The notes: a model not told the origin generated them from the sequence alone. DNA of 64,000 nucleotides from Cyanidioschyzon merolae (GCA_000091205.1 AP006483.2); one strand, 5' to 3'; shown: positions 1 to 64,000, counted from the stretch's first letter. A program made the numbers and translations.

Positions 1-122
1 GCGGTATGCATATCTCGTCGAAAAAAAGCGCCCGATATGAATGTACCAATCCGCTCATCAGGCCTGAATAACCATGAACTTTACACGGGGATACGGCTGC
101 ACCGATTCATCGTCCTAAACCG

Positions 123-231
123 CTACTCCCGTTTCGTCGAGAACGCACCCAGTGCTGGTCGGCTCGCTGGTGTCGCCAGTGTCACCGGTGACGTCCGCTG
201 ATGTCCATCCGCAGTATGATCATAGTCAGCA

Positions 232-268
<37 letters not shown>

Positions 269-2093
269 CAGTAGTAGTAGTCGAATGTTGCAGCGACGCG
301 TAAAACACGCGCAGTTCCTCAAAACGAGCAGCGCATGCGGCTGCGCTTCGTGTCGGAACGAGGGAGGCGATAAGCTGCCACCGGGCTGCACCTTTGGAAG
401 CACCAAAACGTCGCAGCGCCTCCTCCAGTTGCCGCTGCTCACTGACCGTCCAGGAAGCAACATTCGGTGGCGTCAGGCTGGCAATGCGTTGACCAACGCT
501 CTGTGGCGCCCGCATGAGCGCCTGCGCTTGAGCCCGTATCTCAGCCGGCGTATACCGGTGCTGCAACGCTTCCGCGATGCGCGTCCAGCGGTCTCGCGTA
601 CCAGCGGGATACTTTTTCAGTGCACGCGAGAGAAGCGCCAGCTCCTGCGCACTCCATGCATCCGCATTTGCAGCGCGCTGCGTAGACGCGGCATCAGGAG
701 CAATCGTCGCTGCCCCATTTCGGCAACCGCCCACACCGCATGACGTTTCGTGCGATCCCTCTGCGTCTCCGCTGAGCGATGACAACCGCGACGACGAGTT
801 AGAGCCGGCAGTCGTCGCGAGTGCAGCTGCATCGCCACCCGCATCCATGGTGGTGCTTCCAGCGTCTGCGAACTCGCCGCGATGCCTCTGATGCCTTTCG
901 AGCGCATCAGCGCGCCCGGCACGTCCGGTACCCTCATGAACACCAGGCGGTTGTACCAGTGTCTGGCACTGTGCCCCAGGCGTCACTCGATGATCCGTGG
1001 ACGCATGCGACGCCACTGCGTCTACTTCCACAGACGCAGTGCGCAACGCAGGGCGCACAGCTTCTCCATAGACGGCTGCATTCTGAGATAATGACGTTTC
1101 CGCGGGATGCTGCGCCTGCGCAGGCGCTCCATCCGCTGCCTCCAGCCACTGCTCCCGAAAGCGTCGCCGTGCTGCCCGCTCAGCCGCTTTGCGCTGGCGC
1201 TCAGCTTCGCGTATCCTGCGCATACGCGGATCCAACCGATAACTCCGCTCGACAAGCTGCCGAATACGTGCGCGCTCCAGCTGCTTCCGTCGCAGGCGCG
1301 CTTTGCGCTCCTGGCGTTCATGAAAGCGACGTTCCTCGCGAGTCATACTCTGATCCTCCCACAGCTGATCCGCATCTTCCGAAGGGAACTCGCGCCACGA
1401 CTCAAACGCTTGCCAGAACGCGTAAAACGCTAGCACTTCATCGTCTGGTGTCGAGGCATCGCCGAGAAGCGGCACCGGCTGCCGGCAACTCCAGCGTGCA
1501 TTGCGGCGAAACGTTGCCCCGAAGACTGCGTAGAACGCAGCTTCATCGTGCGCATCCTCTTCATCCGGGACACTATCGTCAAAGTTTCCGTCCTTCGAGT
1601 CATAAATCAGGCGACGTTGCGGGTGTAGGAGCACCCGCAGCGCCTGCTGGAGTCCCTGGAATACCTCATGCGCCTGCTGACGTGCGTTCGGAGACAGACG
1701 CACCACTCGATCCGGGTGCACAGCAAGGGATACCCGCTTATACGCTTGTCGAATATCGTCTGTGCTGGCCAGGTATCGAATGTTTTCCAGTCCCAAAAGC
1801 CGGTACCAGTCGCCTTGGCGAACAGCGATCAACAATGCGTCCAGCTTTGCCGGTTGTGGTGCGTTATCCGACACGCTCGGGTCGTCGTGCGTGCCGGTGG
1901 AGTCGGCTTCAGGCAACGCATCGCGAAGGCTGGACTCAAAGCACTCGAAGAAGGTACGCCCAGCGCACTCGAGGCGCCTCGGGCGACAGCGCGCTGCGGA
2001 CGCGAACACCGCACTAGCCGCTGATGTCGTGCTAGCGTACGGAAGCGCCCGCCTGGGTCCCGTCTGTGACCGGGATCGGCTCTCGTGCTCCAT
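123..2093 (-). CDS. DNAJC2: Zuotin / DnaJ subfamily C member 2-like chaperone (J domain followed by two SANT/Myb domains)
   Basis: 656-aa ORF starting at ATG 2093. J-domain signature ...DWYRLLGLENIRYL...IRQAYKRVSLAVHPDRV... lies about 95 aa from the N-terminus, as in zuotin. A charged R/K/E-rich middle region follows. Two C-terminal SANT repeats are present (WSAQELALLSRALKKYPAGTRDRWTRIAEAL; WTVSEQRQLEEALRRFG...RWQLIASLV). The C-terminal poly-Ala comes from the (GCT)n repeat at 229-291. Confidence 0.8.
229..291. repeat. (CAG/GCT)n trinucleotide repeat, encoding poly-Ala at the DNAJC2 C-terminus
   Basis: agcagcagcagc... run. Similar coding GCN/CAG runs occur at about 2250-2280, 3005-3030 and 15090-15125 (poly-Ala in WDR44 and GANP). 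Confidence 0.9.
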
Positions 2094-2111
2094 GCATGGA
2101 AGAGGAGTCTT

Positions 2112-5100
2112 TTACCAAGGCACAAAGTCTGCAGGGATGTTCTCGAAAACCCCAATGGTGCCGTCGTGTGCTGCAACGACGACCACCAGGCCGTCAGAAG
2201 TGGACGTTGCGCGCAGCAGTGCCGCCGTACCAGTTGCAGACGACGACAAGGGCGTTGCTGCTGCTGCTGCTGCTGCTGTTACTGGTGCTGGTGCTATTTT
2301 CGCACGTGTTGGGTAGATGGAAGTGGACGGGCTTCGCTCGATGACGTCCAGTCGATTGGTGCTGCGCTGGGGTGCAAACACCGCAGCTGTAACGTGCGCT
2401 TCACCGAACGGCATGAAGGCCTCGAAACGGTCGTTACGGTAACGACGAATACGAGGCAGTTGACTCGAACTGGTACCGTCGCGGCTTGTGCCTGCTGCTG
2501 CGCTGCTGGACGGATTCGAGGTCAATGCGGATGCGGATGCCCGTTCCGACAGCATACGGTCTGGATAGTACTGCTGCTCGGTACGGGCCGCATTCGTCGT
2601 GCTACTCGGGTTGTTGGTGTTGGTAATGGGCCCTGAGTGCCGCGTCTGCGGGTTACTCGCAAGTGCCGCTGACGCTTCGGGTGCCATTTCATGAGCTGCA
2701 GCAGCGGTGCCGCCACCTGCGTCACGCAACCGGGGCGTGCCTTTCGACCACTGGCTTAGGTGCAAGGCACAACCGGGTGCGCTGTGGTGTCCGGCTTGCT
2801 CGTACAGCACCGTATTCCAGATGTAGACGAGCCGATCCTCACTAGCCGTGATCACGTACCGAAAATCGTCACTGAAACTTGCCCGGATATGGTTCCAAGT
2901 ACAGGAGTGTCCGACGAACTTGCTTACAATGCGCAAGTCCTGAACCCGATACAACCGTATACGACTGTCGTTGGTGCTGATCAATACTTCGTAGTGCTGA
3001 GAGCTGTTGCTGCTGCTGCTGCTGCTGCCGGTGTTGCTGCTGCTGTGTGCACTCGGTGCCATGGTCGCTGCAAACTCGTTGCCGGCGTTCTGTCCAGGTA
3101 CGAAAACGTTGGAGGTCGTCGACACCGCTGGAGCGGTACTGCCGCTGCCGCTGTTGGTGCCTCGACCAGGGCCTCGATCCGGTGTTGGCATCATGGCGAA
3201 ACTGGTGATTTTGCTGCCCTTGCTATTGCGTCCGCGACGACTGTGCACCTCCAGGGTCGTGATGTACTGGAGAGCCCGTTCGCCCTCCTCGAAACGGACA
3301 ACGTTGTAGACTTTGCACTCACCGCGATACGTGCCAACGAGCGCCTGCTCGCCGTTGGGTGTAAACCCACAAGCGGTTACGAGGCCCCGCACTTCTGCAT
3401 AGTCTGAAACGTGCCGCGAGCTAATGTTCCAGAGACGAATACGCTCGTCCAAAGAGCCACTGAGGAAGAAATTCTCGTTCCGCGGATGAAAGGCGACACA
3501 GGTTACAAAATCGGCATGCAGGAACTTGCGCAACACCTGGTTGTAGTCTACGTGCCAAAGACGCACAGTTTTGTCCATAGAGCTGGATAAAAGGAAATTA
3601 TTGGCAGACCACGCGACACAGAGAACGTCACCCCCGTGTCCGCGAAACACTCGATGAGGCTCTCGGACCTCGAATAGACAGCGTGCGTACAGACGCTCGG
3701 GTCCGTCGTCCACGGTGACCGCTGCTCCGTCGCTGCTTTCCGGAGGCGGGGTCAGCAGCCTTTGAAACGCTCGCGCGCCTGCCGTAGCCGGTGAGCGCAA
3801 CCAGCTGGCAATCTCCAACAAGTCCGCATTCGAATAATTCAGCGTGTGCGGCTCGTTCTGCACTTTCCAAACCATGATCACGGCGTCTTGACCGCCAGTC
3901 GCCAGATATCGACCATCGGCAGAGAATTCCATACTCCAGACAGGTCCTGTGTGCGGCCTGAAGCACTGTACCAGACACATGTTGGCGGTGGTGTTAGCTC
4001 CTCGCGACTTGTTCGGAGCATGGACGCGCACAAAGCGCTGTGCAACACGGAATTCCCGAAGCAGCCGTTGGTACTCGCGCTTGTTCAAAGCGCTACCCTT
4101 TTCAGGGAACTTGAATAGAAAGCGCGGCCTACCGAGTACGGTCGTGTCCTCAGTGATAGCGCGTTGCGTCGCTGTACTGGCAGTAGCTGGTGCGGCGGCT
4201 TTTGTAAGCAGGCCCCGGTCGAGGCTGCCCGCGGGTGACCGAAAATCCTCGACTGTGTCGTCGACTACGGAGCCGAACGCTTTTCCATCGCCAGCGAGCG
4301 GCGTCTCTGCGGCCGCACCGGCGGTTGATGTCAGCGATGTGAGCGAGTCTGCACCGGCTTGCACTCGCTGTGTATTGAGCATTGCACCGTCTTGCCTGGT
4401 GCGGGTCGCTGCCGACTTGCTGTGCTGCAAAGCCGCGGCTTGTGTCGAGGATATCGAGGGCGACGCATGCGTCGGTGCTGTTTTCGCGCGCGGTAATAAT
4501 GAAAATGCTCGAATTCGCCCCAGTGGCGTCGAGGAAAAGGTACGTGAACGGCGACTTTTCGTACCGGAGCTTGCGCCCGTCGGATCGTCCTGGTGGGGGT
4601 CACGACGCTGCATGACGGAACGTTGTCGCCGCATCAGTTGCTGCACTGTATCCGCGGAAGTCATCTGGGCAACTTCCTGCTCAGTGAGATACCGTTCTTC
4701 ACCGGTATCCAAGTTCTTAATAAGAAATTCTACACCCTGCTGCGGCTTCCTCGAATCACCCGCGGATCGCTCTCTCATCCGAGTGATCACTTGAAACCCA
4801 GCTTGATCCACTTCAGCAGTACCGAACTCTAGAAGCAGATCTCGTCGACTCGAATCCGGAGACGGTTTGCGCAGTGGCTGGGTTAGCCTGTGCAGCAAAC
4901 TGCGTCCCGACTCTGGGGCAGTGCTGAGGCGGCCCCTCAGGTCCGTGTCACCACCTGCACTGGTGCCGATTGGTGCAGCTAAACTGCCGCTTCCGCTCCT
5001 TTCGAAAGCCGGCGGGTACGTGGCGTCATCGACACTGCGGCTGCGATGCCGCTGACCGGTGCTGGAACCCGAGCGCTGATGCTCCGGGTGCCTTGCACGC

Positions 5101-6099: not shown

Positions 6100-8600
6100 T
6101 TCTGCAACTGCTTCCCTGCGCACAAGTCGGCGCGATAGAGCACGCCACACCGATCGCCTGCTTATCGATGCACCGACGTGCACAAGTCTCCCAGTCTTTT
6201 TGACCGGCTCCCTGTTACCGGTTTCAACTTGTTCTTCTACGTTTCTACCTTGAGAGGCTGACCGACAAAGTTGTCTCTCGTCAGTTCCAGGAGTCTCTTC
6301 TCCAGCACGGCATAGCTCTTTATATTGATAGAAGCACTAAAGTCTCGGTTCACGCACTCCAGGCGTTTCTCGTCGCCGCTTGTACTCACCAGTGCAGGGA
6401 GTCCTCGAACCTGTGCCCTGCTTTCCATTTCCTGCCCTTCCGTCACCGCTCCGTACTTTTGGATATCCCCAGGGCTCCTTTGGCACTTTTCCATCTCAAC
6501 CCTCTGAAGTGTACACCCTAGCTCGTGATGAATGGATGACGTTCCGAACGCATTTATCAGTATCGAAACGAAAAGGTGTGCGCAGTCCTTGTACGCTCGT
6601 GTCGACGGAGCTGGTATACAACCTTTTGTGGACGCCCAGCGTCCTGATCCGTATGCTAATACGAGCATTTTACGCTTGTCCTCCTTGAGGGCCCTCAACT
6701 CATTGAAGAACTTGTCAAATGCACGCTGCTTTCCTCTGTGCAGACGCATATGCAGACGAGCCCATCTGGTCTTGGTGTACTGTTGCCACAGCGCCTCCCA
6801 ATGAGCAGTACAAACTTTCATGAATTCCAGAAAAGCCTCAAAGTCCGCTCCTCGGCTAGTCACCTCGCTCAAAGCTTCCAGGTGCTCTTTCACTCCTCGA
6901 TTCTATTCCTTAATTTTTTCCTCGCGTTCATTTTTCCGGATTCTCGATCGTATCTTGCTCTCGAGAAATTTAAAAGACACATGTCTTCTGACGTAAGCTG
7001 CCGTCAGTGCCATCTTCCGCACGCTTGGGTGCTGCGATGGTCATGATATTCGTGTCCCCAGGGTCCGCGCCAACGACATTGTCGTTCTCCTGGACCTCCT
7101 GCATCACAGGATCCGCCTCGTATATATGTTCATGTTTCGTCGCGGGCGAAGCCGGGGACGGAACTGGACGATCTACCTTCAAGCACTTATAATCTACAAA
7201 TATGGCTACTCCATCACTTTTGATCATCCCAGGGAATAACTTTTGCTTGCTCACTTTGAGGCGTTCGAAATCGAACATATTCTTCCAGTACGTCTCCCGG
7301 TTTTCACCGGAGAACTCGAAATTCCTTACATCGAACTCTGGACTGATCTCCTTCATGATGCCATGAAGGACGCTCGAGTCGATTGCCACAATATCTGACT
7401 TGACGGTGCACAACGGAGCGACATGGAAGCGCTTACCCATTAGGGCAGCCTCCCGTCTCTCCGACTCTTCATTTTTTCCCCACTCAGCTTCATCTCTGCC
7501 TTGCGTTCGAGTTCTCGGTCCAAAAACACAAAATACCGTAGAATGAGGCGATAGTATCTTTCCGTATCCTTTTTCAACTCTGATATCTTTTCTACTGGAT
7601 TCGCTAGCCCCAGTACCGCACGACGCTCTTGAATAGACGCACGGATTCCAGAAGCTTCATTCCTTCTCATGTGTGATGTCTTCTTGTCTACGGATTCGAT
7701 CCTCTGTTCATTCTCCCTATCGTTCGTGATGCCATCGATGGTGACCCATCTCGCCCTGTGAGGCAGGGCCGCCTATAATGCAAACGCGGTGCGTATCATG
7801 AAACGTTCGAGGTTCATAGTCATATCGCTCATCAGGTACGTGGGGTACTTCATCGCTCCGTAGGTGCGAATTCGCCAGTCTCCCCTCTATCGAGTACCGT
7901 TGAGGCGGTATTCGGCGTACTTTTTGTGCAGTATACACACTCGCGCATTTTTCGTCGACATATCCCAGGTGCTTACCATCCGGTAGCGTATAACGGTCTC
8001 GTTGAAAAATTCCTCCGGAACCTCGACTTTTTTGGTGTCCGTCACGTTGTTGTATATCTCTTTTACCAAATGCACTAGTACTGGAAAAGCCTTTACAATA
8101 CTCAAGGAGTACGACTCGACACGGTTTCCGATGGCCTCTCGCAACTTCTGCTTGTACGGATCCTTGATACATCCAAGAAAACGAGCTTTCACTACCATCT
8201 CGTCGTACTGTCGTCTTTGATGCAGGCATAGACGTCTGGGATCCTGTCTCAGCTTCTTGGACGTGTCTTGTTCCTCTTTGCTCGGCACTGTTCTCCGTTT
8301 TCTTCCGGCAGCCGGTGACACCAGGCCTCCAGGATCCTCTACTTCCTTCTCCACAACTTGCCTTTTTTCTATAATTTTAGATTGAATGCTCTTTGAACGC
8401 CTCTGCTGTAAACAGTGTAAAATCACTTGAATTCACTAACTTGAGGGTCGAAGCATAAGTGAACTGAAAACTATACTTTGTTATGACTTGAATGTAAATA
8501 CAAGTTGTGCGTTAGACACCAAGTCAACGAATGATCAGGATCGCATATCCCTTCAATGCCGAGATGCTCGTCGCGTCTGATGCCTCCAAGATGCGGAAAT
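6100..8600 (-). mobile_element. Fanzor/TnpB-like element, copy A (degenerate; interior of window)
   Basis: Homologous at DNA and protein level to the elements at 54.5-57.4 kb and 60.6-63.1 kb. It shares the conserved 5'-flank block (8460-8520, ...gaactgaaaactatactttgttatgacttgaatgtaaatacaag...) and the conserved block just 3' of the stop (6150-6236, ...gacgtgcacaagtctcccagtctttttgaccggctcc...). Boundaries are approximate, taken from where inter-copy similarity fades. Confidence 0.6.
6237..8426 (-). pseudogene. TnpB/Fanzor-like RuvC nuclease ORF broken into at least 5 frame fragments (7887-8426, 7717-8229, 7440-7670, 6970-7440, 6237-6893)
   Basis: Fragment 6970-7440 ends in the RuvC-I-like motif VVGADPGDTNIMTIAAP. 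Fragment 6237-6893 carries ...HELGC..EKC...C followed by the RuvC-III-like VNRDFSASINI. The expected RuvC-II YEFRTS motif reads INAFGTS here (acidic residue lost). Frameshifts occur at about 7440 and about 7890, with a gap at 6894-6969. Confidence 0.6.
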
Positions 8601-9404
8601 GCGCTAACCGACCGGACTATATAGAGCAAAGAACAGAAACGAACCATTAAATAGCAACGAGATGGCAATTTCTTTCCCCTCTACGGTAAACGTTAGAAAA
8701 TGGCAAACGCTTTCCGTATAATCGAATGTCTACAGGTGGCATGTCCCGCGTGCCGGACGAGTCTGCAGGGCTAATGCTTCGTGCTCGCCCCAGTGGCAGA
8801 TGCTTTATTGAGACCTGCGCAACTCGTCCGAAACGCTGCTTATTCTGGGACTAGGAGCGGCTAGCTTGCATCTGGGCATCGCGCTTGTCTCAGCGGACTC
8901 CTCGTGTATTCCTTCGCGCTGCCGCATGCAGTAGATCTGTCTGAACAGATTCCAAGCCCCCAGAATAATAATGAATCGCGACCCGGTATCGCGCTAGCCA
9001 CGCCTCGAGCCAACGTCATCACTCGCATGGTAAAAACGATCTATCTCCGTGATGCTTGTGCTCCAGCGGCATAGGCGCTCCTGCAGGTACAGCACGACAG
9101 GCACTCGGCGCTCGATCGAACGCACAAAACGAATTGTATATCCGAAAAGAAGTATAGGTCATGCAACTTGGAGAAAGGATGCAGCAGCACGATGTACGCC
9201 TCCTCGAAAGCCAATATCCATCCAATCCGCAACCTGAAATCCAAGGTCAACGGACACTTTTCAGCCATCGACAGAATTCCCGCTGCGCTACGCCGCGCGT
9301 ACCCGCAGGCTGCGCGCAGGCGCCCCGTTTCCAATCGATTCGAGCGTTTTCAAACGCAGTGCTCCGTATAGGCACGAGTTCCAGCGCCAAAAGTGCGTGA
9401 TAGA

Positions 9405-42600: not shown

Positions 42601-43135
42601 CCCTCGGGGCAAACGTATGCGCCCAGACTGAGAGCTCTCGCGACGTCCGCACCTCACGTCAGGATTCGGAGCCGGTTCAGCTCGGATCGACGCGCCAGCA
42701 CAATGCCAAAAAGTTCTGTCTGCACAGGTTTAGGCCACAACATTGAAAGTACAACGCATTTCAGTTCGTTGCAGTGCAGTTTCGAAGACAACAAGGCGTG
42801 CCTGCGGTAGTCCCAGTGGAGTCATACGCTGCGAACTTGCCACTGCGGGGAAACCGCACCATATGACCATTGCGCAGCAGTGGTGCTCTCGGCGAAGCGT
42901 TCACGGGAAACTTGCTGGAGTCGGGGTCTCGGAACACTTCCAGGAAGCCTGCTGAACAAGCGACTCACCCTCGATCTATACCAGGGAAGCAGCCTAGGCG
43001 AACCGCTGTGTCCGACACACACACACACGTAAAGACTGGCAAAGGTTGTTCCGGAGCTCGTGTCTTCGCAGTCGTACAAACGGCTCGCGCCGTCGAACGA
43101 GGCTTCCAAGAAAGCGCGTACGCAGCTGTTCCGCA

Positions 43136-46100
43136 ATGCCGCTTCCGTCAGCACAGACGCGTCGCTTTATTAAAAGAGCAAGAGGTGCTGGTGCCACTGG
43201 GCAGGCCTCGGTGCTCCGCGTCTCCCGGGAGCACTACTTGCGGAGTGATCTACCGCTGCCTCCGGAGCCAGCCCTGCGGCCGTTTCTCTTGGTACCCGAC
43301 ACGAACGTAGTGCTGCGTGCAGCGAGCCTTTTCGAACTCGATGCCGTCCAGGAGGTTGTCTTTTTGCAGACCGTGCTGCAGGAGACCCGCAAACAAAGTC
43401 CAGAGACCTACGATCGCATACGGCGACTGTTAGCTTCCCCGGAAGCGAAGCGCCGACACCTCTACCTCTTCAGCAATGAACACTGTGCAGCAACGTTCTC
43501 GGAGCCACTAAAGGGTGAGTCACCAAACGACTACTACGACCGGCTGATTCGCAAGTCTGTGGCGTGGTTGAATACTCAGTACAACGCACTGCAGGGGCCG
43601 CGAGTGGTGCTCCTCACCGAGGATCGCGAGAACGCTCGTCGAGCCAGAGACGATGATCATCTGGTTACCTTCAGCCTCGCGCAAGTGGATGCATGGTGTG
43701 CGGGCGCTGCAGACACGCGAGTTAGGGACCTAGTGGCAGACTCTGGCGGTCACCATGATGCAGCACTGAACGAAAGCGCTTCGGAAAAAGCGCATGCAGC
43801 ACCTGCGTCCAGGACGGAGTCTGCGCCCTACCCGGAGTACTGGCCAGTCGACAAGGTTGAACGCGCGCTCGCCAGTGGTAAACTGTTCCGTGGCGTATTT
43901 CGTGCAACCATGTATGAGCCGTTGGAGAGCGGTGTAGTGGTCATTCGGTCGCCAGCGGGAAATGCGGAGCCCCAGAAGACACAGGTCGCCACACAAGTGC
44001 AGCCAGCGCTGCGCATTCGGGTCCAGGGCGCTGCCGCCGTGAATCGTAGCGTTGACGGAGACCTCGTCGCTGTGCTACCACTGGACGGCGTTGTCGACGG
44101 AGCAGCCAGTGCTGGTCGAAATGCGATACCGACCATCGACGCAGACGCCTTCAGTAGCGTGACAGAGCAGGTGGTGACAGCTGCCTCTGCACTGGGATCC
44201 GAGTCCTCGGATCCGCTGGCTTCGACGCCTTCCCAGGGGCCTCGTCTTGGGAAGATTGTTGCAGTGCTTGAGCGCCGTTGGCGTGCGCAGTACTGTGGAT
44301 CGCTGCAGGCCAAATACACCGCAGATACATTGAGTTTCCAAGGTCGCAGACGACACCTCTTTTTGCCGGTGGATCGGCGGATACCCCCGATCCTACTGGA
44401 GACACTGCAGGCAGCGTCTCTCTACGGCAAGCGGGTGGCTGTTGCTCTTGATCGCTGGGATACCCAATCGCGTTTCCCGGTTGGTCATGTGGTCAGCGTG
44501 CTGGGGCGCATTGGCGATGAGCAAGTCGAAACGCAGGTTTTGCTTCTGGAGAACGGCATTGTGACCCGACCGTTTTCGGAGGCGGCGCTAGCGTGTCTGC
44601 CTCCACCAGACTTTTCCGTTGCGCCTGCCCCGATGGATACCACGCTGGTTGGTCGCCTCGATTTGCGGTCTATGTTTGTTTTCAGTATCGACCCACCGGG
44701 GTGCACCGACATCGACGATGCGTTGCACTGCCGCCTCGTGGATCGGAGCAATGGACAGGGAGCAAATGCGAGAGCGTCGACTCGCCTTCAAGTTGGCGTG
44801 CATATCGCTGATGTGGCGAGCTTCGTTCGAGCAGGGACAGCACTCGATGAAGAGGCACGGGAGCGTGGCTGCACTGTCTACCTGGTGGACCAGCGCATCG
44901 AGATGCTGCCGGCGCTGCTAACGAGCAACCTGTGCTCGCTGGTTGCGGGCAAGGATCGGTATGCGTTCTCGGTTCTCTTCGAGTTGGACGTTGAATCTGC
45001 CCAGATTAACGATGTCCAGTTTACACGCAGCATGATTAGGTCACGAGCATCGTTGACCTACGAACAGGCTCAGTTGATGCTGGATGCATTGGTTGTCGAC
45101 AAACAGAGCGCGAAGCAACTGGGGATACCGCCCGAGCTAGGCGAAGCGCTGCCGCTTCTAGCCCGCGTTGCAGGAAGACTGCGGGCTGAACGACTCGCCA
45201 ATGGTGCGCTCATTCTCGCGTCACCGGAGATCCGTTTCGAGCGAGCGGATGGTGAGAGCCCGAGTCCCAGCGTTGGTTCAGGCTCCAGTTGTCGCAGTTT
45301 TGACACGCACCACCTCGTCGAGGAGTTTATGCTGCTCGCAAATGTGACGGTAGCTAAGCGCATTGTGCACCAGTTTCCGCACTCGGCGTGCTTGCGCCGA
45401 CATCCTCCGCCGAGTGTCGAGCAGTTTGAGCCACTGGTACGGGCGGCAGCAGCATACGGAATCGAGATGCACGTGGATTCGTCCAAGGCGCTTGCGGCAA
45501 GTCTCGACGCCGTCTCAACGACCTCAGCTGGCCAAGAGGACCCACTGCTGGAAGAGCTGTTTCGGATGCTTGCAACTCGTTGCATGATGCAGGCTGCATA
45601 CTGCTCCGCTGGCTCGGCTCCTGCGTCATCCTACTACCACTACGGACTCGCAGTGCCGCTGTATACCCATTTCACGTCACCGATACGGCGCTATGCCGAC
45701 ATTATTGTACATCGCCAATTGGCAGCAAGCTTGGGGTATGAGGATGCTCCTGGTGAGTTGCTCATGAATGAGCAAGTCGAACGTATCTGTGAACACGTGA
45801 ACGAACGCTATCGCAATGCACAGGCCGCAGGACGAGCGAGTTCTGCGCTCCATGTGTTGCTCTGGTTCCATCGGCAATGCCAACGCCCAGCTCATGAAGC
45901 ACGCGATACGGCCTCGATGCTAGAGACAGACGGCCGAATTCTGCGATTCTTGTCGACTGGATTTGTGGCGTACCTGCCCAAGTTTGGTATTGAGGGCGTC
46001 GTTCGCGTAGACGGTGCAGAGACCTCCTGGGTATTGAGCCCTGATTCGCAAACGATCCTCCATAAGGACTCGGGAGTGACGTACCGTATTTTGGGCGCTT

Positions 46101-46282
46101 GTCGTATTCGAATTGTTATTGATGAAAATGCTGTCGGTGCCGATCGTATTCGATTCGAGCTGCTTCCTAGGAACGCCAACAACGCCGTTCAAAGTCGAAC
46201 GACGTCGGGCGTGTGCAGTAGTGGCGGCAACCGCGCCCAAGACGAAACGTCTCCTACTGACGTACAGATGCCACCAAAATAA
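43136..46282 (+). CDS. DIS3: Exosome catalytic subunit DIS3/RRP44 (PIN plus RNB exoribonuclease)
   Basis: 1049 aa from ATG 43136; the track start is a TTG. The N-terminus (VLRVSREHYLRSDLP ... LLVPDTNVVL) matches the Rrp44 PIN region. The RNB catalytic motif FSIDPPGCTDIDDALHC is present, plus RNase II-family C-terminal S1-like sequence. Confidence 0.85.
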   Translation: MPLPSAQTRRFIKRARGAGATGQASVLRVSREHYLRSDLPLPPEPALRPFLLVPDTNVVLRAASLFELDAVQEVVFLQTVLQETRKQSPETYDRIRRLLASPEAKRRHLYLFSNEHCAATFSEPLKGESPNDYYDRLIRKSVAWLNTQYNALQGPRVVLLTEDRENARRARDDDHLVTFSLAQVDAWCAGAADTRVRDLVADSGGHHDAALNESASEKAHAAPASRTESAPYPEYWPVDKVERALASGKLFRGVFRATMYEPLESGVVVIRSPAGNAEPQKTQVATQVQPALRIRVQGAAAVNRSVDGDLVAVLPLDGVVDGAASAGRNAIPTIDADAFSSVTEQVVTAASALGSESSDPLASTPSQGPRLGKIVAVLERRWRAQYCGSLQAKYTADTLSFQGRRRHLFLPVDRRIPPILLETLQAASLYGKRVAVALDRWDTQSRFPVGHVVSVLGRIGDEQVETQVLLLENGIVTRPFSEAALACLPPPDFSVAPAPMDTTLVGRLDLRSMFVFSIDPPGCTDIDDALHCRLVDRSNGQGANARASTRLQVGVHIADVASFVRAGTALDEEARERGCTVYLVDQRIEMLPALLTSNLCSLVAGKDRYAFSVLFELDVESAQINDVQFTRSMIRSRASLTYEQAQLMLDALVVDKQSAKQLGIPPELGEALPLLARVAGRLRAERLANGALILASPEIRFERADGESPSPSVGSGSSCRSFDTHHLVEEFMLLANVTVAKRIVHQFPHSACLRRHPPPSVEQFEPLVRAAAAYGIEMHVDSSKALAASLDAVSTTSAGQEDPLLEELFRMLATRCMMQAAYCSAGSAPASSYYHYGLAVPLYTHFTSPIRRYADIIVHRQLAASLGYEDAPGELLMNEQVERICEHVNERYRNAQAAGRASSALHVLLWFHRQCQRPAHEARDTASMLETDGRILRFLSTGFVAYLPKFGIEGVVRVDGAETSWVLSPDSQTILHKDSGVTYRILGACRIRIVIDENAVGADRIRFELLPRNANNAVQSRTTSGVCSSGGNRAQDETSPTDVQMPPK

Positions 46283-53391: not shown

Positions 53392-54614
53392 GAAGCAGCG
53401 ACATCTTGAGCTCCACGGACTGCGTTGGCGGACGTGTCAACTGTTAATTTGCTCACAGTCTAGATCACGTCTATGCTGATACTCTGTTGCGACAATATTC
53501 CACTCATGTTCACAAGACCCGAGAGTACGAATGAACGAATGCGTTAATGCGGATAAATGTGCGCGGAGTGTCATCTGAGGTCCTCTTCGGGGACTGACAT
53601 TCAGAGATCAGATGAACAGAAAGAATGGACCAGAATTTGCTTTTGGAACGTAAAGGAATGATTACCTCTGCCTATGAGCTTGCCCCCGATGATAGCCTTG
53701 GTGGTAATGGCGGTATATTGGTACCCTTTCTTCTCTTTGTAGTCAGAATACGGTTTCCGAGTTGCATGTAGCGAGTGTGTCTGCAGTAGGGCGTCTGGAA
53801 CTGTTTTTTTAGTTTCGTTGTACTTGAGCACATTCTAGTCCTGAGGAGCGGTTCTGGAGCAAGTTTGACTCGATCCGTACAACCGCAAATTTCACCAAAA
53901 TCCGATTCCTCTTGAGGAAAAGCTAATATTCGTGACGCCTGCATACGGGCTCCGGCTCCGCTTGGCACGAATGGAAGCAGGGCCGCCAGCCTCACAGCGC
54001 ACTTATAGCTTGTTCTGTCGGTCGAGGCATCGTCTCGATATATTCACCACTGTTGCCTACCGTTGCTCGTAGGCTACGTCAATAAAACCGTCTGAAGTGT
54101 TGTGCTGATTTCCGGATTATGTTTATGTCTTGTACACTAGAAAAAAAACGAGAACGAAGTGGTGGTAAGCCGTGAAGACGTAGATGCGCAGTTACCGTTA
54201 CTCGGTCCAGAGGCACACCATGCCAGGCAGTCACATCCTGGGACGAGCTGTACGCTATGTAAGCATTAGCACAGCACCTTGAGCACAGCTGGAGGCATTC
54301 TAGAAGCGGCCAGTATCGATTCTAAACAATTGATCTTGTTCTATATCATTGCAAACAAATTGGTAAACGGATCCGTTGCTAATAAATGGACACAGGGCCC
54401 TCGGAAGATAGATAAACGACAAGGCAGCTGATGATGTATCGAATACAGAAGAACTCGAGTTGCCCATTTTCCACATTTTCTGTCACATCAGTCCTGTTAC
54501 AGCCATGGCAGCGATATCTTCACGAAAAGCATCAACTATTACCACATATACTCTAGGTACTCTTCGCAAATACGGTCTGAATAAGCGACGTAACGCGCCC
54601 GCACCGAACGCTTC

Positions 54615-56943
54615 TCAAACGACGAACGTCGCCGCCGGCCGTGTACGGTAGTGGAGGGAAAACCGCGCCTTGGACAAATCGTCTCCAACTGATGTGCAGA
54701 CGCCCCCCGCCTTTCTCGACGAGCCACCCACTACTGCTTCCAACTTCTTCTCATATAGTTCGACTTTGAGAGGTTGTCCAATAAAATCCTCTTGTGTCCA
54801 CTCTGGAGGTCGTTTCTCCAGCACCGCACATCTCCGTATATTGATAGCGGCATGAAAATCTCGGTTCACGAACTCCATACATTTCGTGCCGTTGGGAGCT
54901 GTACTCACCAATACGAGTAACCCTTGAACTTTCGCCTTCCTTTCCATTTGCTCCTCCGCCAGCGGTCCGTACTTTTGCAATTTCCTCAGCGCTCTTCTGG
55001 CACTTTTCCATCTCCACCCTCTGAAGCGTGCAGCCCAGTTCTTGGTATGTATAGGACGTCCGGAACTCATATACAGGTATCGTAACGAGACGCCGGGCGC
55101 ACTCCTTGTACAGCTTCGTCGCTGGAGCTGGCGTAGTTCCTTTTCTGTTCTTCCAGCGCCCTGCTCCATACGCTTCTACGAGCCTCTGACGGTCATCCCC
55201 CTCAAAGGCGCTCAACTGATTGAAAAAATTCGCAAACGCCCGCTGCTTCACACCGTATAGATTCATTCGCAGACGAGCCCACCGGGGCTTTCTATACTCC
55301 TCCCACAGCGCATCCCAATGGGCAACACGAAATTCCATGAATTTCCGAAAAGCTTCATGGACCGCTCCGCGGCTCGTCGCCTCGCTCAAAGCTTCCAGGT
55401 GATGCTTTATTCCTGCATTCCACGTAACGATTATCATCCTTGCATTCACTACAACGGATTCTCGATAGTATCTCGCTCTCGAGAATCTCAGCAGACGCAT
55501 GTCTTTCTGGCGTAAATTACCGTCCATGCCATCTTCCGCACGCTTCGGTGCTGCGATGGTGATGATATTCGTGTTCCCAGGATCCGCGCCAACCACAATG
55601 TCTTTATCCTGCACTTCCTGTGTGGCAGGATCCGCCTCTTTCTTTCCTTGATGCTTCGTCGCGTCAACCATAAAGTCGTTATCCTGCACATTCTGTTCGG
55701 CAGGATCCGCCTCCTTCTGACCTTCATCCTTCACCGCGCCAACGACACGGTCGTTATCCTGCACTTTCTGCATCACAGGTTCCGCCTCTTTCTCTTTTTC
55801 ATCCTTCACCGCGTCAGCGACAAAGTCGTCATCCTGCACCTCCTGTGTCGCAGGATCCGCTTCTTTGATTTTTTAATGCTTCGCAGAGGGCGAAGCGAAA
55901 GGCACAATCGGACGGTCCACTTTCAAGCGCCGATAGTGTACATACAAGGTTACTCCATCGGTCTCGATCAACGCAGTGAATACCTTTTGGCTTCTCACTT
56001 TGAGCCGTTTGAAATTGTAGATGTTCTTCAAGTACGTCGCCCGGTTTTCACCGGTGAAGTCATCCCTGCTAACAGTGAACACTGGACTGATCTCCTTCAT
56101 GATGCCGTAAAACACGTCCGAATCGATATTCACGAAATGTGACTTGATGCTGCACATTGGAACCACGTTGAAGCGCTTACCCATTAGGACAGCCTTCCGT
56201 CTCTCCCAATCTTCTTTTTTTTCTTCACTCAGCTTCATCTCCGCATTTCGCTCGAGTTCTCGGTCCAGAAACACGAAATAGCGCAGAATAAGACGATAGT
56301 ATCTTTCCTTATCTTTTTTCAACTCTGATGTCTTGTATGTTGGATTCGCCGGCCCCAAGATTGCACGGTGCTCTTGTATAACCGAATGGATTACAGAAGT
56401 ATCATTCGTGCTGTCGTTAAACGCCTTCGTGTCGACGAATTCGACATCACCTTCATGCTTGCGATCGTTCTTGATGCCATTGATAATCACCTATACTCCT
56501 TTGCGAGAGACGCCCGGGTAAAGTGCAAACACGGCGCGTATCATGAAACGTTCTAGGTTCATTGTCAAATGGTTCGTCAGGTTCGTGAGGTTCTTCATCT
56601 CCCCATAGTCGTAAATACTCCGGTCCCCCTTGTATCGAGTACCCTCGAAGCCGTAAAAGGGATGTTTTTCGTGGAGGGCATGAACCCGCTCGTTTTCCTC
56701 CCGCGCTTCCACTGTTGCAAGCATCAGGTATCGAATAAAGGTCTCGTCGAATAACTCGTCCAGAATCTCGACCGTTTCCATGTACGTCACGTCGCGATAC
56801 ATATCCCTCGCAAAATGCATCAGCCCTGACCATGCCTTGATAATACTCTTGGAGTACGAGTCGACACGTTTTTCGATAGCGTCTCGCAAATTTTCCCTGT
56901 AAGGATGCTTGATATGATTAAGAAGACAGGCTTTCACCATCAT
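54615..56943 (-). pseudogene. TnpB/Fanzor-like RuvC nuclease, about 770 codons: one in-frame TAG (56491-56493) and at least two frameshifts (fragments 56491-56943, 55873-56490, 54751-55839, 54615-55169)
   Basis: RuvC-I motif VVGADPGNTNIITIAAP (Asp codon 55582-55584). RuvC-II-like VYEFRTSYTYQELGC...EKC. RuvC-III-like CMEFVNRDFHAAINI (Asp codon 54858-54860). The long N-terminal region is homologous to copy A. The protein end GQPLKVELYEK is conserved in all copies. Confidence 0.65.
55579..55875. repeat. 75-bp tandem repeat (about 3.5 units) inside Fanzor-like copy B, encoding 25-aa acidic repeats (QDNDxVVGAVKDEGQKEADPAEQNV)
   Basis: The units atcctgcac(t/a)t(c/t)ctg...caggatccgcctc(t/c)tt... 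begin at 55606, 55681, 55756 and 55831. Copy A has a single unit at the homologous position. Confidence 0.85.
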
Positions 56944-58416
56944 CTCATTCTACAGTCATCTTTCCCGCCGCCTTCGACCTAGGGCCTCCCGCTTTCGGTT
57001 CTTCTTCTTTTCCTGTTCTTCTGGACTCGGCTCTGTTTTTTGTTTTTATTTCTGGCAGCAGGCGACACTGGGCCTCCGGGATCGTCGACTTGCTTTTTCA
57101 TAGCTTTTCTTTTCATTTTTTTGTGTGAAAAAGAACGCTCTTTGAACCCTTCTATTATATACTGCGAGAAATCAATTGAATATGTTTACTTGAGGGTTGA
57201 GACACAATCGAACTGGAAACTATGATTTGTTACGACTTCCACGCAAATACAGCTTGCCCGTTAGAACATCAAGAAAACGTGTCGTCACGGTCGCGTTTCT
57301 CTTCGAAGGCGACAGATGCGTCGTGTCTCGCAAGTGCCATACTTGGAGATGCACGTATCGAGCGCGCCATACAGGAAAAAGGACAGTGACCTACGATTTA
57401 CAAGAAACGATATAAAATTTTTTCCCGCTCTACGATAAGCGTTTAAGGGGAAATAGATCGCCGTTCTATCGGAAGCTTATGTTCGAGGCGGAAGGTCCCG
57501 CGAGCCGGTCGAGTCTACCGGGCTAGAGCTCGGTATCCCTCTTAAGTGGCTGCTGCCGCTGCTGCTGCAAGACCTGCGTAGCTCGTTCGCAACGCATTTT
57601 ATCCTGAGACTATGCACAGGATGCTGCGTTGGGCCTCGCCCTGGTCGCAGTGGAACCCTAGTACAGCACTTCGCGCTGACGCAGGTAGTACGTCTTTCTG
57701 CGCACTTTGCATGTTCCCAGAATGACAAATAGCCCTGATTCCGTTTCAAGTGAATCATTCCTCGAGCGGACGCCCTTAGTGGTATGGCAAAGCCGTTCTG
57801 TCTCTGTACAGCACCTGCTTGAGCGGTATAAGCGCTACAGCGGGTGCTCACAACAGGCTCGGCGCTCGATAGAACATACGAAACGACCAGTATATCAGAG
57901 AGGTAGTATGGATAATGGGACTTGAGGACAGGTGCACTATGATCGAGATATCCCCGGAAGCCATCGTGCGTTCCGAATTCTGGGATGCATGGGCAATGCA
58001 AACGTTCTTTCATCGAAAAGAAAAAAACGCTCCGGAGGCGGACTCGTCATCGAGACGCGCATCGCTCTGGATCGAATCTCCGGAAGGCGCTTCTGGGCGA
58101 TCGCGAAAGCGCTCAAGCGCATCTTTGTGTCCTCAACGGATAGCATGATTTATTCGGGGCGCTCAGTCTCGAGCGTTCCCTCTGACTTAAAGCAATAGCT
58201 TCGTGGATCCTACAGCTGTGTTGTCAAAGAGCACTGTACCTAGTTTTGGCGAGGCCTATAGTGCTGGAGAACAAAACGATCACGGGTTTGTAGCGATCTC
58301 GGCACCAGTGCTGGAAACAACCCTGCACTGGAGCTCGGGCGATCTGAAACCTGTAGTCGGACTTTTTCGAGGATCTGTCTCGCAAGGAAACAAATCGTGG
58401 AACTGTGCTCTTTGGA

Positions 58417-59481
58417 ATGACGTCGGGGATCGACGAGGCAGCGGCTGAGCTTCAGGGAAGTCTCTTTGGGGAGGTCTCGCCTGCGATCGACTCGCCGGGT
58501 GCGGCGCTTGCACGTTCGTACCCGGTCCGCATCACCGTGGTTGGAGCTGGTGACGTTGGCGTTGCTTGCGCCTATAATATTTTGACCCGAGATATTTGTA
58601 GTGAGCTGGTACTGGTGGACGTTCTCAAGGACAAACTCAAGGGTCAAGTTATGGACTTGCAGCATGGAGGTGCGTTCTACAGCACCCGCATCCGGGCTGC
58701 CGAGTCCTACGAGGATACAGCACATTCGGCAGTATGTATTATAACGGCAGGTGTGCGTCAGCGGCCCGGAGAAAGTCGTCTTGAGCTCATGGATCGCAAT
58801 GCCGCATTGTTCAAAGGCATTATTCCGCCCCTGGTGCAGTATTCGCCGAACACAATCCTGTTGGTTGTGAGTAACCCCGTTGATCTATTGACACATCTAG
58901 CGTGGCAGATGAGTGGCTTGCCCCGCGAACGTGTGATTGGCTCAGGGACATATTTGGACTCTTCGCGTTTCCGCACACTTCTGGCGCAGCGGCTGGGCAT
59001 CGATACCGCTTCTGTCCAGGCCATGGTACTGGGCGAGCACGGAGACTCCTCGTTCGTGTACCGGAGTGGTATTACGGTTGGTGGCGTGCCGTTGCGAACA
59101 TGCTTCGAGCGCATGACCGACGCTGCGAGCGCGTCCACAGCATTCTATGATCTGGTGAAAGGTGTCCATCAGCAAGTTGTAGCCGCGGCTTACGAGGTCA
59201 TTAAGCTGAAAGGCTACACCAACTGGGCCATTGGCAGCGCTGTTGGAAGCATCGTTACAACGATTGTGCATGATCGGCGCAAAGTGCTGCCAATAACGAC
59301 GCATGCGGGCTCGTTGCGAGGCCTCGAGTCGGCGGATGTATTCTTGTCGTTGCCTTGTGTGCTAGGTCGGAATGGTGTCGTTGAAGTACTACAAATACTG
59401 CCGTTCATGGAAAGTGACGAGAAAGAAGACCTCCAATCCAGTATAGAGGCACTCCAGAGCACGCCGAAGAAAGCATCTTGA
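58417..59481 (+). CDS. LDH: L-lactate dehydrogenase
   Basis: 354 aa from ATG 58417; the track start is a GTG. RITVVGAGDVGVACAYNIL...LVDV..DKLKGQVMDLQHGGAF...ITAGVRQRPGESRLEL...VVSNPVDLLT...RVIGSGTYLDSSRFR...LGEHGDSS match the LDH nucleotide-binding, substrate and catalytic-His motifs. Confidence 0.85.
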   Translation: MTSGIDEAAAELQGSLFGEVSPAIDSPGAALARSYPVRITVVGAGDVGVACAYNILTRDICSELVLVDVLKDKLKGQVMDLQHGGAFYSTRIRAAESYEDTAHSAVCIITAGVRQRPGESRLELMDRNAALFKGIIPPLVQYSPNTILLVVSNPVDLLTHLAWQMSGLPRERVIGSGTYLDSSRFRTLLAQRLGIDTASVQAMVLGEHGDSSFVYRSGITVGGVPLRTCFERMTDAASASTAFYDLVKGVHQQVVAAAYEVIKLKGYTNWAIGSAVGSIVTTIVHDRRKVLPITTHAGSLRGLESADVFLSLPCVLGRNGVVEVLQILPFMESDEKEDLQSSIEALQSTPKKAS

Positions 59482-60589: not shown

Positions 60590-63060
60590 TCTGAGGCCGA
60601 AACGTCTCGGACGACCTCCGCACCCGACGACGACAACAAACACCTTTCAAAACAAAAACGTTGCTGCTGGCAGTGTACAGTACTGGCGAGAAACTCGCCC
60701 TAGACCAAAAGTCTCCAGCTGACGTGCAGACGCCTCCCCGTCTTTTTCGACCGGCCACCTACTGCGGGTACCCTTGTTTCTCATACAGTTCCAGTTTAAG
60801 AGGTTGTCCAACAATGTTCTTTCGTGTCGACGCTGGGAGTCTTTTGTCTATTCCCGCACATCTCCGTAGATTGATTCCAGCGTTAAAGACTCGGTTCGCG
60901 AACTCCATACGTTTCTTGCCGATGGTAGTCGTAATTAGTAATGCAAATAGTCCACGAGCTTCTCCCCTCCTTTCCATTTCCTCTCCCGTCAGCTGTCCCT
61001 TACTTTTTTATATCATGAGGACTCCGCTGGCACTTTTCCATCTCCACCCTCTGAAGAGTACATCCCAACTCATGGTGTGTATACGATGTTCGGAACTCAC
61101 CTACAGGTATCGTAGAGAAACACAGTGCGCATTCTTTGTACATTCCTGCCGTTGGAGCTGGTGGAGTCCCTTTTTTTCGGAGCCCAGCTCTCTACTCCAT
61201 ATATAACAACGAGCCTCTGACTTGATCCTCTTTCAAGGCGTTCAACCCATTGAAAAAGTTCGCGAATGCGTGATGCTTACCACAGCACGGATTCATACGC
61301 AAACGACCCCAGCGGGGCTTTGTATACTTGCCCTACAGCGCCACGGAATGAGCAACACGAACTTCCATGAAATTCAGAAAAGCTTGAATGTCCGCTCATC
61401 GGCTCGTCACCATGCTCAAAGCCTCCAGGTGATCCTTCATTGCTACATTCCACGTAACGATCTTCTTCCTTGCATTCATTACACCGGATTCTCGATAGTA
61501 TCTCTCTCTCGAAAACCTCAAAAGACGCATATATTTCTGATGCAAGGTGCCTTCGGTGCAATCTTCCCCGAGCTTGTGAACAGCGATGGTTCTGATATTC
61601 GTGCTCCAGGGACTAAGGCCGACGCCAAAGTGGTTTTCATGGGGCTTATACGTTCCATAGCCCGTAAACCTGTGTTCGTTCTTCGGCAACGCCCGTAACG
61701 AAGACGGGATAGGACGAGCTGCCTTCAACCGCTGATGGTGTACACATATGTGCGCCACATCGAGATCGATTGTTCCAGTGAATAACCTTTTTTTGGCCGG
61801 TTCGGGACGCTTGAAATCGAAGATATTCTTCTCGTAGGCGTCCCGATCTTCACCGGAGACCTATTTGTTGATTACATCGAGCTCTGGACAAATCTCTATC
61901 GTGAAGTCGTGAAGTACTACGGAGTGGTTACTCACAAAATGTGACTTGAACGCGCATAACCGACCGACATTGAAGCGCATCTGGAGAAGACTTCAATGTC
62001 GTTTCTCCCACTCGTCATTTTTTCCTCACTCAGCCCCATGTCGGCTCTGCGGTCGAGGTCTCGGACAGAAAACATGAACCAGGGCAGGATGAGAGAGTAA
62101 CAACTCTCTCCGTCGTTTCTCATATCCGAGAGTTTTCTCTTGGGTTGACATGACCCAAGACCGAACGATGTTTTAGAATAGTGGCGCGAATTACAGGAGC
62201 ATCATTCATTATCCTGCGTGATGTCCTCTTGTCGACGAGTCTGATCTCCTGTTCATGCTGGCGATCGTTCTTCATACCATCGATGATTGCAAGCATCGCT
62301 TCGCGAAATATGCCCGGGTACAGCACAAAGGCGACGCGTATCATGAAACAATCGAGGTTTGCCATTCTATGGTTCCTCATATTCGTGAGGCACCTCTTTG
62401 CCCTGTATTCGTAAATGTCTGCGTCACCCTTGTGTGCAGTACCACTGAGGCGGTATTTGGCCTTATTTTTAAGGAAGGCATGCACTCGCTCACTTATCCC
62501 CGATGTTTTCCCATTAAAAACAATCAGGTAGTTGATGAAAGTCTTTTGGAAAATTTCTTCCGGAAACATCACTTTTGCGATGTGCGTTACGTCCCGATGC
62601 AGGTCGCTGTCCAAATGCCAACGTCCTAAAGAAAAGCTCCAAACATACCCGGCCTACGATCCGCCACGGTTTCTGATAGCGTCTCGCAACAATCAGTCGT
62701 ACGGATCATTGATATGTTGGAGAAGATAAGATTCCACCACCATCTTGTCGTACAGAAGTCACAATTTCGGCCTTCGATGTAAGGCCCCCCATGTTGCTTC
62801 TTCTTCTTTTCCTGACCCTCTTCGCTAGGCAATATGTCTCATTTCATTCTGACATCCGGCAGCACCGGCCACCCCAAACCCACTACATCATACTACATAA
62901 GTGTCAGATTTTTTGGGAGAACATCTCATTGGACGCTTCTGCTTTGAACGGCGAGAATCTGGTGAATAGAGTTACTTTAAGATTGGAACGCCACTGAAGC
63001 CAAAACTATACTTTGCTACGATTCGATCGCAAATACAAGTGGCCCCGATAGAGCAGTCGC
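60590..63060 (-). mobile_element. Fanzor/TnpB-like element, copy C (most degraded; 1-3.4 kb from telomere)
   Basis: ORF fragments 62120-62614, 61932-62123, 61396-61758 and 60759-60977 are homologous in order to copy B (...ESCYSLILPWFMFSVRDLDRRADMGLSEEKM..., ...STNIRTIAVHKLGEDCTEGTLHQKYMRLLRFSRERYYRESGVMNARKKIVTWN..., ...MEFANRVFNAGINL...NIVGQPLKLELYEKQ). The conserved 5' block lies at 62990-63050 and the conserved 3' block at 60600-60758. Confidence 0.6.
60759..62614 (-). pseudogene. TnpB/Fanzor-like nuclease remnant (RuvC-I Asp lost: STNIRTIA; RuvC-III reads NRVFNAGINL, Asp lost)
   Basis: See the element feature above. There are multiple frame breaks and gaps between fragments, and the catalytic Asp residues of motifs I and III are substituted. 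Confidence 0.55.
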
Positions 63061-63975
63061 TCCAGTAGAGGTCATTACCGCGTTTTTCTTGATCGGAGAG
63101 GCGCACGTTGGGTGACGTGACGGCCAGATTTCGCGATGCGTTACCAGGACGCACGACAGAGAAAATGCAAAAAAATTAACCAATATGCACAAACAGGATA
63201 GCAAGTACTATTGCAACCTAGTATAAACGTAAAGAAGATGATTTCGCGTATGGTCAAAGTGTTACATTTAATCGGGAGGTCTGCGTGCCGCGAGACTACC
63301 GGCCTGCCCTCCGTGTGACTTTCAGTGGAGAGTGATATGAGACACTTGGGCAACTCATCCAAAACGCAATTAATTTCGGGACTAGGAGCAGGCATGCTGC
63401 GTCTGAGCACTAACACCGTCGCGGTGAACAGATAGTACGCCGTTTTACGCTACCGCATGCAAATCGTCTGCAAGATCCGCTTGGAGGCTCCAAAGAAAAT
63501 AAATCTCCCTGATCCCATGTAGCATGAACCAAGCCCCTTCCAACGCGCCCAGTGGTATGTCAGAGCTGCCCTGCTTCCGGAGTGCACCCACAGCGGCGAT
63601 AGAGAGGCTACAACGGGTGCTCAAGGTAGGTAAACGGCGCACGATAGAAAGTCAGATACAATCAGTACAGCCGAGATTAGGTAAATGCGACAAAAAGTAC
63701 CGAAATTGTTCAGCGTGACGAAGGATTTTCCGAAACAAGTATCAATCCGGCAATCTCGGCGTCTGGTCAGTAGAACAGGCTCTGTCGAAACAAACCAAAG
63801 CAAAGCGCTGGAAGGAGATCCATAAGGGCACTGGTGTGCTGGATGTAGATAAGAAAGATGCGTATTTGCTCAGATCGTACCGCCGGAAAAATACCCGAAC
63901 GAACCTGGATTGGTAGACATCGCTCTGACAGATGCTTTTTCTCTGAGAACACCGCAGTAATGGGGCATTGCGTCG

Positions 63976-64000
63976 AATGGGGGGAATGGGGGGAATGGGG
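63976..64000 (+). repeat. Telomere repeat (AATGGGGGG)n, G-rich strand running 5'->3' toward the window end; truncated by the window edge
   Basis: aatggggggaatggggggaatgggg. AATGGGGGG is the telomere repeat reported for Cyanidioschyzon merolae. Confidence 0.8.

Follow-up and report, generated by a model that had tools for sequence, protein, structure and literature searches.

We analysed a window of 64,000 nucleotides (nt) from the red alga Cyanidioschyzon merolae (GCA_000091205.1, AP006483.2), by which we mean the whole stretch of DNA, with positions counted from its first letter. Four long open reading frames (ORFs) of the window are identical to the C. merolae 10D proteins BAM78815, BAM78816, BAM78823 and BAM78825, and the telomere repeat AATGGGGGG, present 2.9 times, occupies the very end of the window at 63,975-64,000, where the final letters read AATGGGGGGAATGGGGGG. 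On the minus strand at 54,609-58,015, 6-9 kb from the right telomere of chromosome 1, lies an element with a single broken ORF, referred to here as copy B. The window was aligned to the CMe-1A consensus DNA and the CMe-1 protein taken from the supplementary files of Bao and Jurka (2013, Mobile DNA 4:12; DNA in file 2). By blastn, consensus nt 1-2196 matched window 58,015-55,809 at 81.1% identity and nt 2122-3169 matched 55,658-54,609 at 86.0% identity. Copy B spans consensus nt 1-3169 and carries three extra 75-bp units; its identity as CMe-1A stands because the window aligns with the published consensus. By tblastn, the pieces of its ORF were 62-71% identical in amino acids (aa) to the 734-aa CMe-1 consensus protein. 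We conclude, with a probability of about 93%, that copy B is an old, inactivated, full-length copy of the CMe-1A Fanzor1 interspersed repeat of C. merolae.

An initial annotation, made from the sequence alone, had placed a near-full-length TnpB/Fanzor-like element at 54,520-57,370. This was near the mark: the element is 54,609-58,015, with the Fanzor core giving way to a separate 5' module at 57,366-57,370. The annotation had also proposed a multi-copy family at a chromosome end, and three CMe-1A copies are indeed found in this telomere-bearing window, all of them on the minus strand. Copy A (6,172-9,261; consensus 9-3092; 81.5% identity) has a fragmented ORF and has lost the RuvC-II glutamate (NAFGTS). 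Copy C (60,643-63,676; consensus 115-3167; 73.7% identity) lies only 0.3 kb from the telomere repeat; its ORF is likewise fragmented, RuvC-I is degenerate, and the RuvC-III aspartate is replaced by valine (NRVFNAGINL). Both were delimited by blastn and tblastn. All three catalytic codons are kept in copy B alone.

The element is not new, as the initial annotation had suspected: it has apparently been known as a repeat since 2007, and as a Fanzor1 with a published consensus since 2013. CMe-1A is the one Fanzor1 family that Bao and Jurka (2013) reported from C. merolae, with ~150 copies that are each ~80% identical to a 3,169-bp consensus and of which some remain intact. According to these authors the element is devoid of inverted repeats, its target duplication is not determinable, and its 5' 635 bp correspond to another repeat, TE-N2_CMe. 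Nozaki (2007; PMC1955436) reported a transcribed 3.2-kb interspersed repeat, present in 253 copies and making up ~5% of the C. merolae genome, with a truncated ORF that shows weak similarity to WSV486 of the shrimp white spot syndrome virus. Because Bao and Jurka list a Fanzor1 in this virus, and in view of size and copy number, the Nozaki repeat appears to be CMe-1A. In this model red alga no repeat is more abundant than CMe-1A, and it carries little weight as a discovery. What the present analysis adds is that a decayed Fanzor can be recognised correctly by a reader of sequence only, that its lesions are ancient rather than assembly errors, and that it belongs to a Fanzor1 clade devoid of the canonical zinc finger, which is relevant to tests of C. 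merolae Fanzors as editors and to their biology.

The broken ORF and the age of its lesions

Three-frame translation of copy B traced a minus-strand ORF series from MMVKAC (56,943) to a stop at 54,615, i.e. 2,329 nt or ~776 codons, in agreement with the ~770 codons and the three ordered RuvC motifs of the initial annotation. This ORF body (54,615-56,943, supported by tblastn) consists of a REC/WED-like N-terminal half and a split RuvC domain. Comparison with the consensus places the ancestral ATG upstream of 56,943, at ~57,101, and the intervening segment (56,944-57,101) is a degenerate basic N-terminal extension resembling a nuclear localisation signal, as judged against the CMe-1 protein (MEKEVEDPGGPVSPAAGKKRK...) and two related metagenome loci (L005 and L006, see below). 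RuvC motif I reads GADPGNTNI (55,564-55,590) and keeps its catalytic Asp; it aligns to DPGR of PpFz1, the Fanzor1 of Parasitella parasitica, and its D-P-G is invariant across the family. Translation and profile alignment located motif II, YEFRTS (55,054-55,071; consensus DEFRTS), with its catalytic Glu kept, and motif III, NRDFHAAINI (54,837-54,866), with its catalytic Asp kept. The Fanzor1 order D ... E-x-[RK]-[TS]-[TS] ... RD is present in copy B and the motifs are invariant in relatives; the D-E-D triad is intact in the consensus of this single-ORF element and in the codons of copy B.

The ORF pieces are colinear with the 734-aa consensus protein, with all 3,169 bp of the published DNA consensus, and with uninterrupted relatives (among them the proteins P0001 and P0044) of 676-752 aa at E-values (E) down to 1e-294. 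The order and spacing of the motifs are not an artefact of frame joining. Just upstream of RuvC-I, the linker holds a 75-bp (25-aa) in-frame tandem repeat of 3.8 units (55,584-55,866; Tandem Repeats Finder and self-blastn). Its unit reads …KEADPATQEVQDxDxVV… and duplicates the linker into the RuvC-I strand; the consensus and copy A have a single unit, copy B and P0001 have about four each, and a further relative (P0024) has six or seven.

Copy B carries seven ORF-breaking lesions relative to the CMe-1A consensus, four stops and three frameshifts, and because of these it is unable to make a Fanzor protein. Three lie in the N-terminal extension: a 2-nt insertion near 57,040, recognised by comparison with the consensus and with L005 and L006, an in-frame TGA at 56,958-56,956 and an in-frame TAG at 56,952-56,950. 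The ORF body has an in-frame TAG at 56,491-56,493 (consensus TGG, Trp), an in-frame TAA at 55,873-55,875 (consensus GAA, Glu), a +1 frameshift in an A-run near 54,975 (54,970-54,978; GCAAAAG versus consensus G-AAAAG), and a -1 frameshift in a G-run near 54,702 (54,698-54,706). The initial annotation had counted one TAG and at least two frameshifts; it was right about the two frameshifts of the body, but the body has two stops, and the N-terminal insertion and its two stops come in addition.

A scan of Joint Genome Institute (JGI) metagenomes yielded 422 related stretches, from which 80 loci were kept. Near-complete uninterrupted ORFs were found in 3 of the 80 (L001, L009 and L019), and most others are broken. 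The nearest relatives of copy B are L005, L006 and L023, all on hot-spring metagenome contigs, and L023 shares its 3' flank. L005 and L006 have exactly the TAG of the ORF body, and all three loci have exactly its TAA and its A-run frameshift. Private to this genome's copy are the G-run deletion, the N-terminal 2-nt insertion and the two N-terminal stops.

These data bear on the possibility that the gene is intact and active, with stops and frameshifts that are sequencing or assembly errors such as homopolymer miscalls. Two of the frameshifts do fall in short homopolymer runs, the A-run and the G-run named above. However, four of the seven lesions are substitution-type stops and not homopolymer errors, the TAG, the TAA and the A-run frameshift recur base for base in three independently assembled metagenome contigs, copy B is 14-19% diverged from the family consensus, and the C. 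merolae genome was finished to '100% complete' through directed sequencing (PMC1955436). We therefore consider sequencing error a very improbable explanation. Because TAG, TAA and +1 frameshift are common to independent contigs, and given the divergence, comparison among copies identifies copy B as an old pseudogene and not assembly noise. The pseudogene proposed by the initial annotation thus stood, but its alternatives of a recent origin or assembly indels did not.

In a set of 52 non-redundant copies, conservation was 0.87-0.93 at the first two codon positions and 0.80-0.84 at the third. Since the first two positions are better conserved than the third, codon statistics indicate that the protein was under purifying selection while the family diversified, which agrees with the remark of Bao and Jurka on intact copies.

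Fanzor1 fold and the missing zinc finger

To place the family, a profile was built solely from eleven relatives with 27-63% identity to copy B. This profile matched PpFz1 (9cf0) at E=9.7e-12, with DPGR, DEFRTS and NRD..A..N in register, and GtFz1 at E 0.29; further homology search with it returned mostly Cyanidioschyzon fragments and gained one distant relative. An AlphaFold (AF2) model was made for the intact relative P0044, with a predicted local distance difference test (pLDDT) of 83 and a predicted template-modelling score (pTM) of 0.76. The model shows a bilobed REC/WED plus RuvC/TNB fold. It superposed on SpuFz1 (9ceu) at E=3e-18 with template-modelling scores (TM) of 0.63/0.69, and whole-chain matches to SpuFz1, PpFz1 and GtFz1 ranged over E 3e-18 to 4e-16 and TM 0.53-0.70. 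The next-best structural neighbour was Cas12f (E=8e-6). On the strength of the profile match and this predicted model the Fanzor1 fold assignment is secure for the family, and it extends to copy B because the homology to P0044 is unambiguous (E=1e-122). The membership in the TnpB/Fanzor superfamily proposed by the initial annotation was thus borne out by both profile and fold, the latter through the kind of structural superposition it had suggested.

The family shares with the solved Fanzor1 proteins (SpuFz1, 8GKH/9CEU; PpFz1, 9CF0; GtFz1, 9CER) the fold, the alignment of the RuvC D/E/D residues, a eukaryotic host, a transposon-borne location and a length of 600-750 aa; its genes lie within a multi-copy mobile element of a eukaryotic genome. 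Sequence identity to these proteins is only 11-16%, and of the four zinc-binding cysteines of their TNB/NUC domain only one position still has a Cys. CMe-1A is devoid of inverted repeats, unlike the SpuFz1 locus (PMC10432273). TnpB proteins of IS200/IS605 elements such as ISDra2 resemble the element in the split RuvC domain, the motif order and a 3' non-coding region overlapping the ORF end, but differ from it in several respects: here the host is a red alga and not a prokaryote, the element has a single ORF and no TnpA (Y1 or serine), its REC-like N-terminal half is far larger, no C4 zinc finger is present, and Pfam models of TnpB type stay below threshold. Cas12f shares the RuvC/TNB core, but it superposes with a TM of only 0.22-0.34, and the element has no CRISPR array.

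Several results count against the assignment. The repaired window protein gave no significant match in Pfam or NCBIfam, so that the Pfam TnpB/OrfB hidden Markov models put forward as a check by the initial annotation found nothing in it; in relatives they remained sub-threshold, with Cas12f1-like_TNB at E 0.006-0.23 and 12-17 bits, below the cut-off of 26.3. The fold is seen in P0044, which is 37-39% identical to copy B, and not in the window sequence. Finally, the C4 zinc finger is absent: neither copy B nor the CMe-1 consensus contains a CxxC there, and of 161 relatives examined (149 top hits and 12 earlier homologues) 135 allowed both flanking motifs to be located, ~120 of which likewise lack it. 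Searches with phmmer of the single window protein against the PDB returned only noise, and some relatives have a precomputed weak match to DUF8286.

The lack of a database match for the conceptual protein is also what could be said for the view that the RuvC-like motifs are a chance pattern from joined unrelated frames, with no kinship to TnpB or Fanzor. Against this stand the colinearity with uninterrupted 676-752-aa proteins, the profile match to a solved Fanzor1 and the full-length fold match to three Fanzor1 structures, which together reduce the chance explanation to a practically negligible one.

The Fanzor1 signature of Bao and Jurka (2013) includes a C4 zinc finger between RuvC-II and RuvC-III, and a conserved CCCC finger is present in SpuFz1 and ISDra2 TnpB (Saito et al.). 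In copy B the corresponding segment (55,053-54,867) belongs to a family-wide pattern that reads ...EFRTSYTHHELGCTLQRVEMEKCQ...VRGLLALVST... or ...EFRTSKVHWKDDKILKTV...VRGLLWCGST..., and the conserved motif VRGLLWC.ST / VRGLLALVST stands in place of the second half of the finger. The initial annotation had seen a C..C cysteine cluster after YEFRTS. This did not hold up: the two cysteines are eleven residues apart (C-x11-C; ELGC...EKC), are not conserved in relatives and do not form a zinc finger. The clade is large, an exhaustive profile search at E<=1e-3 returning 5,277 clusters at 50% identity. Its missing finger weakens membership by the strict Fanzor1 signature and leaves the fold assignment untouched; as a consequence, nuclease or RNA-guided activity cannot simply be assumed for the clade. 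If its proteins still are RNA-guided nucleases, the zinc ribbon would be dispensable for the TNB domain. Zinc receives no mention in the structural Fz1 paper PMC11423790.

Element ends, 5' modules and the 3' tail

The left part of copy B (57,370-58,015 on the minus strand, inner boundary approximate; consensus ~1-635) is the non-coding module TE-N2_CMe. Consensus nt 1-635 are present in copy B, and the same segment is separate in other loci, where it occurs alone, inverted, or beside other copies. A 178-aa ORF in the module was rejected as a gene; it is not conserved in the consensus, which has no long ORF there. The 5' boundary of the Fanzor core lies at ~57,366-57,370, and in most related copies the shared sequence extends no more than ~420 bp beyond the coding region on this side. 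End-points of the alignments to related loci cluster at 58,019-58,025 and at 57,469. Because at least three or four different modules adjoin the same core boundary among the copies (L006, L008, L058, L075, L029, L065, L017 and others), CMe-1A, i.e. TE-N2 plus core, is only one among several forms that the Fanzor element takes at its 5' side.

Just upstream of consensus nt 1 (58,015), window 58,016-58,028 reads GTTTTTTTCTTTT on the minus strand. A T-run of variable length precedes the left end of TE-N2 in ~14-16 of 18 copies (including L010, L044 and L047), whose flanks are otherwise unrelated; it is a decayed poly(A) on the opposite strand. In L010, L044 and L047, an inverted TE-N2 with an A-run sits directly against the core's 5' boundary. 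TE-N2_CMe may accordingly be retroposon-like, with an A-tail, and lie antisense to the Fanzor ORF. We tentatively put forward the wider proposal that the CMe-1-type clade lost the C4 finger with its protein under purifying selection, and that TE-N2 is perhaps an independent A-tailed retroposon, but taken as a whole this remains doubtful. If true, a TE-N2 retroposon repeatedly landing at, or travelling with, the Fanzor core would bear on how elements spread without a transposase. Straddling the left end of the element, a weak match to the C/D-box snoRNA snR75 was recorded at 57,977-58,067 on the minus strand (E=0.09; 23.4 bits as against a gathering threshold of 40); it is probably due to chance.

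The element has no transposase gene, no terminal inverted repeats and no recognisable target-site duplication, and no inverted pair joins the ends of copy B. Identity as a Replitron or Helitron, considered for a hairpin-ended element without inverted repeats, was rejected, given that Replitrons have not been found in red algae and that no Rep gene is present. These same absences could suggest that the family is a domesticated host gene family and not a mobile element. Such an origin is extremely improbable, however, in view of the 150-253 dispersed and mostly decayed copies in the literature, the three decayed copies in the window, the sharp common 3' ends and unrelated flanks of the copies, and the broken state of most of the 80 related loci. 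Copy B shares with CMe-1A the organism, the TE-N2-like 5' 635 bp, the same 3' end (...TTTTGAAAGGCG) and the absence of inverted repeats.

When active, CMe-1A codes for a single intronless protein of ~734 aa, in which a basic N-terminal tail precedes a REC/WED-like half and a split RuvC domain bearing the D-E-D triad, in a Fanzor1 fold devoid of the C4 zinc finger. By analogy with studied Fanzor1 and TnpB relatives, this protein would bind an ωRNA derived from the last ~150 nt of the element, overlapping the ORF end; the ωRNA would read out into the flanking DNA, which would serve as guide, and guided RuvC cleavage of matching DNA may help the element to persist. In characterised Fz1 systems the ωRNA comes from the transposon end region and has its guide at its 3' end (PMC10432273, PMC11423790). 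The RNA-guided nuclease activity, the ωRNA location and any present-day role proposed here are modelled on such systems, and the placement of the ωRNA in the 3' tail is taken from knowledge of Fanzor1 and TnpB, not from evidence obtained here.

The 3' tail that would provide the ωRNA scaffold (54,595-54,745 on the minus strand, delimited by conservation and minimum free energy folds) overlaps the ancestral ORF end and ends in a hairpin. Among 50 copies, conservation stays within 0.73-0.90 up to ~260 nt past the MEFVNRDF codon, drops to 0.59 in the following 20 nt and is ~0.3 from there on; the published consensus ends (…TTTTGAAAGGCG; window 54,609) within the stretch where conservation drops. 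Both main sequence variants have a hairpin made up of the final 30-45 nt, and in many copies the terminal pairing runs on for 8-13 nt beyond, largely as G·U, which fits an RNA rather than a DNA structure. Minimum free energy folds of the last ~145 nt show a recurrent long-range helix (GCAGUAGUGG/CCACUACUGU) around two or three hairpins, followed by the terminal hairpin. Fold z-scores reached -2.6 to -4.5 in the best-preserved copies, with a mean of only -1.2. Other analyses did not support a conserved RNA structure in the tail. In a covariation test of a hand-built four-helix structure 77.5% of cells were paired as compared with 77.1% in shuffles, a self-versus-cross duplex test of the terminal hairpin arms revealed no significant copy-specific complementarity, RNAalifold predicted no pairs in 44 tails, an Rfam scan found no match in the tail, and conservation in the tail does not exceed that of third codon positions. 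These negatives on structure are weak either way, because most copies decay neutrally.

Although copy B makes no protein, it might still be in use, with its tail supplying guide RNA in trans in the manner of 'ghost' loci (Saito 2023) or with the copy serving in subtelomeric heterochromatin. The tail and its terminal hairpin are kept in copy B, the repeats are reported as transcribed (PMC1955436), and ωRNA loci without a gene are known in other Fanzor hosts (PMC10432273); moreover, the trimethylated histone mark H3K27me3 is found on about half of the C. merolae repeats, CMe-1A being among its targets, and is enriched at chromosome ends (PMC5405695, 2017). However, the sequence of copy B shows no sign of constraint, its tail has diverged and has a 1-nt deletion, and the fold of this tail is no stabler than that of shuffled sequence (z = +1.4). 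We thus regard continued use as improbable, and an inactivated repeat as the better description of copy B.

Further traces of the element and its surroundings were noted. A solitary 65-bp tail fragment at 46,211-46,275 on the minus strand is 87.7% identical to consensus nt 3073-3137 and overlaps the 3' end of a 1,078-aa ORF (43,046-46,282, plus strand). Between copies B and C lies an intact 358-aa ORF resembling lactate/malate dehydrogenase (58,405-59,481, plus strand). It is common for related metagenome contigs (loci L005, L050, L059/L060 and L069) to hold two like-oriented copies at a distance of 2.4-4.9 kb, as for copies B and C, and this paired arrangement suggests clustered or tandem insertion.

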